From contig MQRK01231162.1 of assembly GCA_001938485.1 (NCBI GenBank), positions 1 to 64,000 on the forward strand: 64,000 nt of DNA, read 5' to 3'. The notes under the pieces were generated by a model that saw only the letters and a program-made list of their open reading frames with translations, did no database searches and was not told the origin of the DNA. A program made the position numbers and the translations under genes. Each line of letters opens with the position of its first letter. Within the stretch, counting starts at the first letter, position 1. This document shows positions 681-3,207 of the stretch, one piece after another. The stretch comes from Girardia tigrina (Eukaryota).

Positions 681-1208
681 ATGTTATCTGAACTCAACGA
701 TCCAATATTTACGGACGATTCCCGAATTATGAATCACGCCATCAAATCCGTTTCTTCAAGTCTCAGCGAGCAGCACGATCCTTATTCGCGATTCGTGTCG
801 AATCTCGGCCGATTCATCGCGAGTATGGACACTTCGGATGTGCCAAATCAACCGTTGATGCTTGTCAAGTCTCTGTACGATATGTGTTCGCAATTCGCTG
901 CCACAACACCGATCGCATCGATCAATAAAGTCGACGGAGAATCAACAGTGTTGATGCAACAGGACGCCAACGATTGTTTGGCGGAAATCGTTCGAACGCT
1001 TCAAAAAACTCTCCGAATTCCATCGATACTCAATTCATCTCTGAATAAGGATTATCCGAAATCATTTGGTCGAAATCGAAATTTGAATTTTATCGATCAA
1101 TTTCTCACTCAATGATTGTCGGTCACGACGGCAAACACCGAGAACGAATCGGAAAGTGTGATAACGGAAGATCCGTTTCTCCAGTTAAGTTGTTATATCA
1201 ACAAAGAC
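681..1208 (+). pseudogene. USP14: USP14/Ubp6-like deubiquitinase fragment (internal catalytic-domain segment)
   Basis: QFA...MQQDANDC...LQK...FIDQF...[10 protein letters not shown] matches USP14 QFAE..LQQDANECW..LIDQFF..LQLSCFINQE. ORFs 681 and 1116 share a frame, separated by one TGA (1113-1115). No Cys box or His box. Confidence 0.8.
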
Positions 1209-1510
1209 GCGGGCACTCTCACGCTGATCGACACGGGAATCATTATGACGAAAGACGAGGTCATAAACAATCTTGGAACGATCGCCCAATCAGAAAGCAA
1301 GGCATTTATGGAGGCGCCGCAGGCCGTTGCAGATATCGCGATGATCGATCAATTCGGTGTCGGGTTCTATTCGTCGTATCTGGTTGCCGGCAAAGTCCAG
1401 ATGATCTCGACGGGCAACAACGACGAGCAGTATTTGTGGGAGTCGTCTGCGGGTGGATCGTTTACTGTGAAATCGGACAAAAGCGAACCGATCGGCCGAG
1501 GAACAAAAAA
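1197..1510 (+). pseudogene. HSP90: Cytosolic HSP90 N-terminal ATPase-domain fragment
   Basis: [73 protein letters not shown], unmistakable HSP90 signature with degenerate conserved glycines (GIG>GII, IGQF>IDQF). Confidence 0.95.
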
Positions 1511-1517
1511 TAAGCCC

Positions 1518-2733
1518 GGCACAAAAAATACAACAGAGGGTATTCACACGGATCCAGATAAAATTAAAGCAATTGAAGGATTCCAGAAACCAAACTGCAT
1601 GAAGAATTTGAGAAGTTTTCTGGGAATCAGTAACTAATACAGGCGATTCATAAATGGTTACTCCAGAAGGGTTATGTGGATCGAATAAAGATAAAATAGT
1701 ATGGACGGACTCATGTGAACAAGCTTTTACGATATGAAGAAATCCCTCATAACAGCCCCAATTTTAGCATTTCCAAACTCCAACAAAGAGTTTATTTTGG
1801 ATACGGATGCCAGTTTTGATTGCATAGGAGCAGTATTGTTACAAGTTGGCGAATTCGGAAGGAACATGTAACAGCTTATGGCTCGCATTCGATGGGAACT
1901 CATGAGAAAGGATATTGTATAACTAGGAAAGAACTTTTGGCCATTTATTATTTTTGTCAACATTTCAATCATTATTTATATGGGAAAAGATTTAAACTAA
2001 GGACAGATCATAAAGCCATCACTTTTATGTTACATACAAAAAATTACAATAACAGCCCAGTTCCAGACATGGATCAATTATCTCATTATTTTAGATATAG
2101 AGATGCTATACAGAAAAGGTGAATGACATGGAAATGCAGATATGCTGTCTCGAAGCAAATATGACACATGTACCCAGTGTAAAATGCAACATGAAGATGC
2201 AAAATCAGAAGACTTAAAACGAATTTTTTCAATCACAGAAGGTACAAGAATTAATGATAAAACAATGTATTCAATTAGTCTTCCCTAGTCCGTACCTTCA
2301 TAACACCAATGGTATGGTGGAAAGACAATTTCGAACGATACGAGAGTATATTCAAGCAAGTTTAAAAGAAAGAAAAGAGACGAGTTTGGCAGATATGCTC
2401 CCAGAGGTGGAATTCACATTAAATGCAACACACCAGAAATCAATTGGAAGAAGTCCGACTGAAGTTATTTTAAATAGAAAAATAGATAGGCTGAAGTGGT
2501 ATAGCAATAAAATGAACACGTCAGACGAAAACAACAAGTATCCAGGCGGAAAAAAACACAGCGAAATTTCAATATGGGAGAGATCAAGTGTGAGTAAAAA
2601 AATAGATCAGAAATAAAGATGATACACCATCATAGAAAAAATTCATGAGAGGAGTTATAACCTTGAGGATAAAGAGAAAAGACAAATAGTAAGAAATGTC
2701 GAAAAGTTCAAAAATTTTAAAGAAAAGGGGGAA
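1518..2733 (+). mobile_element. Ty3/gypsy pol remnant (RT C-terminus, RNase H, partial integrase) ending in polypurine tract
   Basis: [63 protein letters not shown]. Stops, frameshifts and an integrase deletion. PPT aaagaaaagggggaa at 2719-2733. Confidence 0.9.
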
Positions 2734-3207
2734 TGTTAGGAATTAAAAATGTTAGGAAAATTTTTGAAAGAAGTTTAAATTAAATATGTACAAATTAAAA
2801 TTTTTATATAATTAAATGTAACGTTTAAAAAAATAAATTACTAAAATAAATATCTAATTAAATTGTTAATAATTAAAAAAATTTTGAGTTTGAAATATAA
2901 AAATGAAAAAGCATAATTTTTATGTGTACCGATTTTTAAAAATTAATAAAATTAAACGTAACGATTAAATATTTTAAAATTTTATCGTAATTTAAAATTA
3001 ATTTATAAAATTAATATAAAAAAATCAAATATGAATATTTATAAGTATTTGTATTTATATCGGTTTAAGATTTATAAAACAAATTGTTTCTGAAAAAAAT
3101 TTGTTTAAATATTAGATTTAAACATTTTTTTGTGTCGTATAATGAAGTTTGGATGTCTGAAGTAAATCTTAATAATTATTCCGAGGATGTTCCAAGAACC
3201 TCTAATA
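2734..3207 (+). repeat. Probable 3' LTR of the gypsy remnant
   Basis: TGTTAG begins directly after the PPT; candidate end ctaata (decayed CTAACA) at 3202-3207. Right boundary uncertain. Confidence 0.5.

Follow-up and report, generated by a model that had tools for sequence, protein, structure and literature searches.

Spliced fragments of host USP14 and HSP90 mRNAs inside a probable BEL/Pao-type long terminal repeat of Girardia tigrina

How did pieces of USP14, HSP90 and a gypsy pol gene come to lie one after another on the same strand of a Girardia tigrina contig? The question is posed by what we will call the window, the whole stretch of 64,000 nucleotides that was analysed (contig MQRK01231162.1, with window position 1 at the contig start). 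The first-pass annotation, made from the letters alone, had taken the block for a single retrocopy in one frame, created when the gypsy reverse transcriptase (RT), at work on its own RNA, changed template twice, at microhomologies, to co-packaged host mRNAs. All the parts that it named were recovered (Table 1): the USP14 and HSP90 fragments (the latter also with a PDB match at E=5e-42), the TGA at 1113, the degenerate HSP90 glycines, the remains of gypsy RT, RNase H and integrase, and the polypurine tract (PPT) and LTR that close the block. The history proposed for them holds only in part. Comparison with the other copies of each part makes it very probable that the sequence at 673-1535 is what remains, on the 3' side, of an LTR with spliced pieces of USP14 and HSP90 inside it; this LTR is likely to be that of a BEL/Pao-type lineage and to have been inserted into the RT gene of an unrelated gypsy element. 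The three-part junction of the window is probably ordinary nesting; it is the LTR family that is unusual, as a real variant of LTR-mediated retroposition.

Table 1. Features of the USP14-HSP90-gypsy block and of the sequence preceding it, in window coordinates.
Feature	Position	Strand	Remarks
hAT transposase fragment	1-240		Pfam Dimer_Tnp_hAT
DNA-transposon-like repeat end (terminates ...AAACCCTA)	510-672	.	Truncates the LTR on its 5' side
USP14 cargo derived from mRNA, Cys box to ...YIDKD	673-1209	+	Frameshift near 729; TGA 1113-1115; 88% identical to parent L093
USP14/HSP90 switch point	1200-1209	+	GA(T/C)AAAGACG common to the parents; 7 exact bases = window 1203-1209
HSP90 N-domain cargo, NKD...GRGTK	1201-1509	+	Four glycines lost; 87% identical to parent L035; PDB alignment
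3' tail of LTR, likely BEL/Pao-type, CA-ended	1510-1535	+	Same end throughout the family; 3 bases shorter than most copies
Decayed gypsy pol fragment: RT end, RNase H, integrase	1536-2733	+	480-490 base internal deletion; separate family; Pfam
Gypsy polypurine tract	2720-2733	+	From sequence; LTR begins directly after
Gypsy 3' LTR	2734-3207	+	Matches 5' LTRs of other gypsy copies

The single reading frame holds only in part. An open stretch at 1116-1637 does run across both junctions, but the block as a whole is not one frame, as the Cys box lies in another one owing to a 2-base insertion near 729, and the gypsy frame is broken by a stop at 1635, by more stops and frameshifts, and by the deletion, which falls at 2221/2226. 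That the gypsy join looks in frame is a matter of chance (one in three). Upstream, the repeat end at 510-672 returned 77 candidates, with 81-95% identity among the 40 scored when the window itself is left aside, and in five of the seven loci printed it has the same end, at the equivalent of 672, next to unrelated flanks.

The USP14-HSP90 part is a dispersed repeat with ends of its own. The search for other copies, which the first-pass annotation had advised, produced 679 candidates for window 660-1530 (40 scored) and 234 for the USP14 part alone; here and below such candidate counts are first-look figures and not copy numbers, as some contigs duplicate one locus. Copies of the family terminate at the equivalent of window 1535, in ...AAAAAATGCAACAACA, and gypsy sequence follows none of 38 distinct tail ends that share this fixed 3' end. 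None of 20 copies with wide flanks adjoins gypsy sequence; in one of these, some 1.5 kb upstream, lies a piece of gypsy at 65% identity. Full copies run from TGTT to CAACA between 5-bp target site duplications (TSDs), and on these grounds we consider them to be solo LTRs. The TSD is exact in seven of the 11 USP14-HSP90 copies with a callable TGTT 5' end, but not in the other four. A younger 1.16-kb derivative (61 exact motif matches), which retains short remnants of USP14 and HSP90, is represented by 23 distinct full copies, of which 15 have exact TSDs and 21 have TSDs with at most one mismatch. Subfamilies with further deletions at short repeats are also found, and of 18 tail matches the five that lack HSP90 belong to units with the same ends and other cargo. 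The duplicated 13-mer at which the template had been supposed to switch from HSP90 to gypsy turns out to be a mutated form of the ordinary 3' end of the family, made of the HSP90 end and the LTR tail.

A retroposon of SINE or LINE type, which a 3' end that is fixed and 5' ends that look ragged would suggest, is rejected in view of the TGTT heads and 5-bp TSDs. Similarly, a SINE or a processed pseudogene made by a LINE would have a poly(A) or variable repeat tail, TSDs of variable length and an autonomous partner with the same tail, as opposed to a fixed ...CAACA end and 5-bp TSDs.

The gypsy family, in turn, is separate and abundant (11,087 candidates), with the RT-RNase H-integrase order and its own LTR, whose ends are given by three full copies with 5-bp target duplications. 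The cargo (window 662-1530) is matched in none of 20 other gypsy loci fetched, and normal RT continues upstream in 17 of the 19 printed. Among 100 listed matches of the gypsy junction motif (out of 125), 94 have normal RT upstream, one is the window and five have other foreign sequence. Together with the many dispersed copies that lack gypsy, this speaks against gypsy as the capturing element, the role initially assigned to it.

The LTR and gypsy meet at 1535/1536, exactly on the terminal CA of the LTR and with about one common base, as integration predicts and not at the microhomology claimed for this join. That the LTR of the window entered the gypsy RT gene by integration is what we infer rather than read off directly, since three pattern searches for the left junction gave nothing usable and since 1510-1534 is uncovered by contigs of two DNA runs from other samples (X1 and X2), though its flanks are covered. 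Logan contigs of X1, X2, X3 and X13 are short pieces, none of them bridging 1535, and are evidence neither of absence nor of expression. Two other kinds of foreign sequence meet gypsy RT at the position of the window's junction (G000:C168653, C170370, C173306, C219029, C254969 (L052), C211368 (L062)), and such joins of other sequences at the same position are not predicted by plain insertion.

These last observations give the best of the competing explanations what strength it has, namely that the cargo LTR is as described but came to gypsy RT by deletion, recombination or a template switch or splice at a hot spot in RT, without integration. Three kinds of foreign sequence then meet gypsy RT at one position, just after TAG; the LTR tail that is three bases short and the missing left junction would also fit. 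We nevertheless hold it to be improbable, because the join falls on the terminal CA, like the products of integrase, shares only that one base or so, involves an LTR tail without a splice donor, and occurs once among the 100 listed sites. Distinctly less likely again is that the HSP90/gypsy join is a chimera of two high-copy repeats, put together in a fragmented short-contig assembly. The assembly does consist of 255,254 contigs, and the gap in X1 and X2 coverage is where a chimera would leave one; but X1 and X2 are other samples whose contigs drop rare variants, 1510-1534 can be recognised as an LTR tail with changes private to this copy, the join falls exactly on the CA end, and the two repeats have no common word on which an assembler could have joined them. 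As for the single three-part retrocopy of the first-pass annotation, with gypsy RT moving from its own RNA onto the HSP90 and then the USP14 mRNA, the order and strand of the parts, the open frame and the real USP14/HSP90 microhomology agree with it, but we give it next to no credence: USP14-HSP90 occurs without gypsy in many units that have ends of their own and are flanked by TSDs, the 26 bases between HSP90 and gypsy are the tail of a foreign LTR, and the cargo is missing from all 20 gypsy loci.

To which elements does the cargo LTR belong then? No internal region was found next to any copy of the long USP14-HSP90 subtype, and the link to a likely BEL/Pao-type lineage goes via sister subtypes with the same ends. 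The head motif is preceded in three of 62 matches by a purine tract ending in GGAGGA. The internal end next to this tract (83 candidates) leads to gag- and protease-like remains, and DUF1759 is above the cut-off in two of six internal-region frames tested (L196 and L190). At L211, an integrase with DUF5641 (E=4e-19) lies in a frame that terminates in the same PPT block. DUF1759 in Gag and DUF5641 after the integrase are markers of BEL/Pao elements. Directly after the internal-region PPT, L183 has the derivative LTR, in which 120 bases of USP14 and 57 bases of HSP90 remain beside further coding-like sequence and a Rab/Roc-like piece; the match for this last piece is weak (Pfam Roc, E=2e-5 and 25.2 bits against a cut-off of 27 bits; PDB, E=5e-4). 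In L287 the PPT is followed by an LTR with no cargo but HSP90, which begins near codon 9 and extends to the same point on the 3' side, as would be expected of a precursor of the USP14-HSP90 type, and in L283 by the head of a window-type LTR, which then breaks off. Another subfamily with the same ends carries SBDS (Pfam E=1e-16; 293 candidates) and is found as solo LTRs with target duplications, after the PPT (L178, L186, L187) and before the primer site (L291, L293). A primer site of the TTCTGGT type follows the tail in L215, L291 and L293 but, within the 38 ends, no USP14-HSP90 tail. Across the subtypes the LTR heads are short and AT-rich and only 65-85% alike over 60-250 bases, which weakens the link. 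The cargo therefore sits within TSD-flanked solo units and PPT-adjacent LTRs, and not between two LTRs in place of internal ORFs. No full element with cargo in both LTRs was recovered, and no RT of the BEL/Pao-type lineage was seen in the loci fetched. That the repeat is instead a non-autonomous DNA transposon (Ginger-like or Pack-TIR) which picked up a pre-existing retrocopy is hardly credible, for all its TGT...ACA ends, short TSDs and mostly stand-alone copies, because terminal inverted repeats were not found (past TGTT, the 3' end has no inverted counterpart upstream) and because identical ends lie after the PPT and before the primer site of elements with BEL/Pao gag.

Most of the SBDS coding sequence is present in the same-ended LTRs of L128, L141, L144, L151, L152, L178, L186, L291 and L293. 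A search in which one of eight fetched loci was examined brought no parent gene of SBDS to light, and its best match is another LTR copy.

The cargo itself records how it was acquired. Both parent genes are in the assembly, on different contigs, and align with the repeat over 537 bases (USP14) and 309 bases (HSP90); a second HSP90 gene is only 70% identical to the HSP90 part. The USP14 parent has a 70-base GT..AG intron after the fifth codon, and its spliced N-terminus aligns with human USP14 from residue 1. This intron is precisely absent from all four distinct repeat copies that cover the site, which shows that the source of the capture was mRNA. The microhomology between USP14 and HSP90 is real, but it is not the 12-mer atcaacaaagac reported at first: what the parents have in common is the motif listed in Table 1, and at least seven exact common bases are met at only 0.09% of 200,000 randomly drawn junction pairs (P=0.0009). 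By comparison, about two exact common bases only are found at the switch point between HSP90 and the LTR tail. Private substitutions in the cargo, each present in one copy, show a ratio of non-synonymous (N) to synonymous (S) changes of 320:106 against a neutral expectation of 3.3, and in 22 of 23 copies the aligned cargo is interrupted by a stop or frameshift. Neutral decay, intron loss and the location of the parents on different contigs together point to RNA-templated capture of what is now a pseudogene, as the first-pass annotation had also held. Capture of USP14 and HSP90 through an RNA template, at a microhomology and by the reverse transcriptase of an LTR element, is the part of that first interpretation which holds; it was mistaken about the capturing element and the layout. 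Substitutions common to at least ten copies are rich in S (21 S, 18 N), which could be taken for selection on the cargo, but later change in the parent gene itself explains them equally well, and we do not read selection from them.

USP14 also occurs in a second repeat family (L087-L092, L212, L218-L221), where the end of exon 2 is joined to exon 3, the intron between them and some exon bases being missing. HSP90 is found in a younger repeat (L295-L313; 448 candidates), which bears the 5' half of the gene at 94-97% identity to L035; an apparent 57-base intron in the 5'-UTR of the parent is absent in the copies read.

How could host mRNAs become part of an LTR? During minus-strand synthesis the RT would leave the short LTR tail for a co-packaged HSP90 mRNA, with short minus-strand strong-stop DNA as the landing strand, and would then return from the mRNA to the LTR head, which would have the cargo copied into both LTRs. 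To judge from a sister LTR, in which this tail comes after AATAAA, the tail likely spans the end of R and a very short U5. USP14 mRNA may have replaced the 5' part of the HSP90 cargo in a later round, at the common AAAGACG, and further rounds may have trimmed the cargo and added to it. As the element spread, recombination between LTRs would leave mostly solo LTRs to decay neutrally. One copy would then have integrated into a gypsy RT gene, and DNA transposons would have displaced its 5' half.

Several known systems come close to this. LTR-mediated retroposition by template switching, described with examples that include the Drosophila Pao element BATUMI, which co-retroposes two genes, and the mosquito BEL18_AG (Tan et al., 2016; PMC5131818), has much in common with our family: fragments of spliced mRNAs, chimeras of two genes, carriers of BEL/Pao type, further rounds of retroposition and, at least for the USP14/HSP90 switch, microsimilarity between the templates. 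In that account, however, the retrocopy lies between the LTRs and replaces part of the internal ORFs, whereas in our family the cargo is inside the LTR, survives as solo LTRs and has been swapped serially between subfamilies. Host-derived sequence within the LTR and solo LTRs with 5-bp TSDs are known from the non-autonomous elements Cassandra, Helenus and Ajax (PMC10886601), but those LTRs keep pieces of 5S rRNA or tRNA as Pol III promoters, in contrast to the neutrally decaying protein-coding mRNA cargo here; in 10 loci, Rfam gave no match to tRNA, 5S rRNA or other families at the gathering threshold. Maize Bs1 and the TRIMs of plants (PMC4717578) resemble our family in their intronless fragments of several genes, 5-bp TSDs and later amplification, and differ in being plant elements with captured exons in the internal region. 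Multiplication of a housekeeping gene into many copies by a transposon is also, to judge by its title, the subject of a work on a fungus (10.1101/550798). PMC3726574, PMC5408684, PMC8532177 and 10.64898/2025.12.11.693146 contribute nothing further to the comparison. Serial capture of protein-coding mRNA inside an LTR was not found in our paper searches, which covered part of the literature.

The family would thus offer a route by which fragments of host mRNAs enter the LTR itself, to be spread by each insertion and each solo LTR. Decayed fragments of HSP90, USP14 and SBDS may number of the order of hundreds in this one genome (448, 234 and 293 first-look candidates, respectively, which are not copy numbers). 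The subfamilies appear to preserve the order of capture, from HSP90 alone to USP14-HSP90 and then to the addition of the Rab-like piece with the older cargo trimmed, and so would represent a natural record of aberrant strand transfer. In practical terms, cargo copies can be a source of error for gene annotation, RNAi design and read mapping. Through them one could also test whether small RNAs of transposons spill over onto essential host genes.

We have also considered that capture might be a strategy under selection and not a by-product. A BEL/Pao lineage would then benefit from an LTR that acts as a cassette in which abundant host mRNAs (HSP90, USP14, SBDS, Rab-like) can be exchanged, and likewise from the fusion of HSP90 and ubiquitin to Gag. 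We think this unlikely. If it were true, host-like sequence at both ends of the RNA would blunt piRNA silencing or turn it on essential host genes, and Gag would be processed under the control of its fusion to ubiquitin.

Several further observations concern the elements around this family. In many copies of the internal region, fragments of the HSP90 middle domain together with ubiquitin are fused in frame to the N-terminus of a BEL/Pao-type Gag (L211:118-1743, L217:1798-3165, L208, L209, L196, L215). The LTR bodies of L120, L121, L190, L195 and L215 contain further coding-like cargo, with one weak match, below the cut-off, to the NUP159/214 propeller. About 2.7 kb from a PPT-linked LTR, near the border of L154 and L155, lies what we take to be a 14-3-3-like frame fragment (G000:C248579, around 23470-23920). 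No intact host gene is evident among the frames of at least 150 aa in the window, where the frames at 50332-51318, 35109-35627, 36306-36797 and 59972-60580 are presumably Tc1/mariner-like, other transposase-like and GIY-YIG-like. The window also holds a second gypsy-like element, partly masked and on the minus strand (53601-57660), with gag, protease, RT and integrase-like frames.
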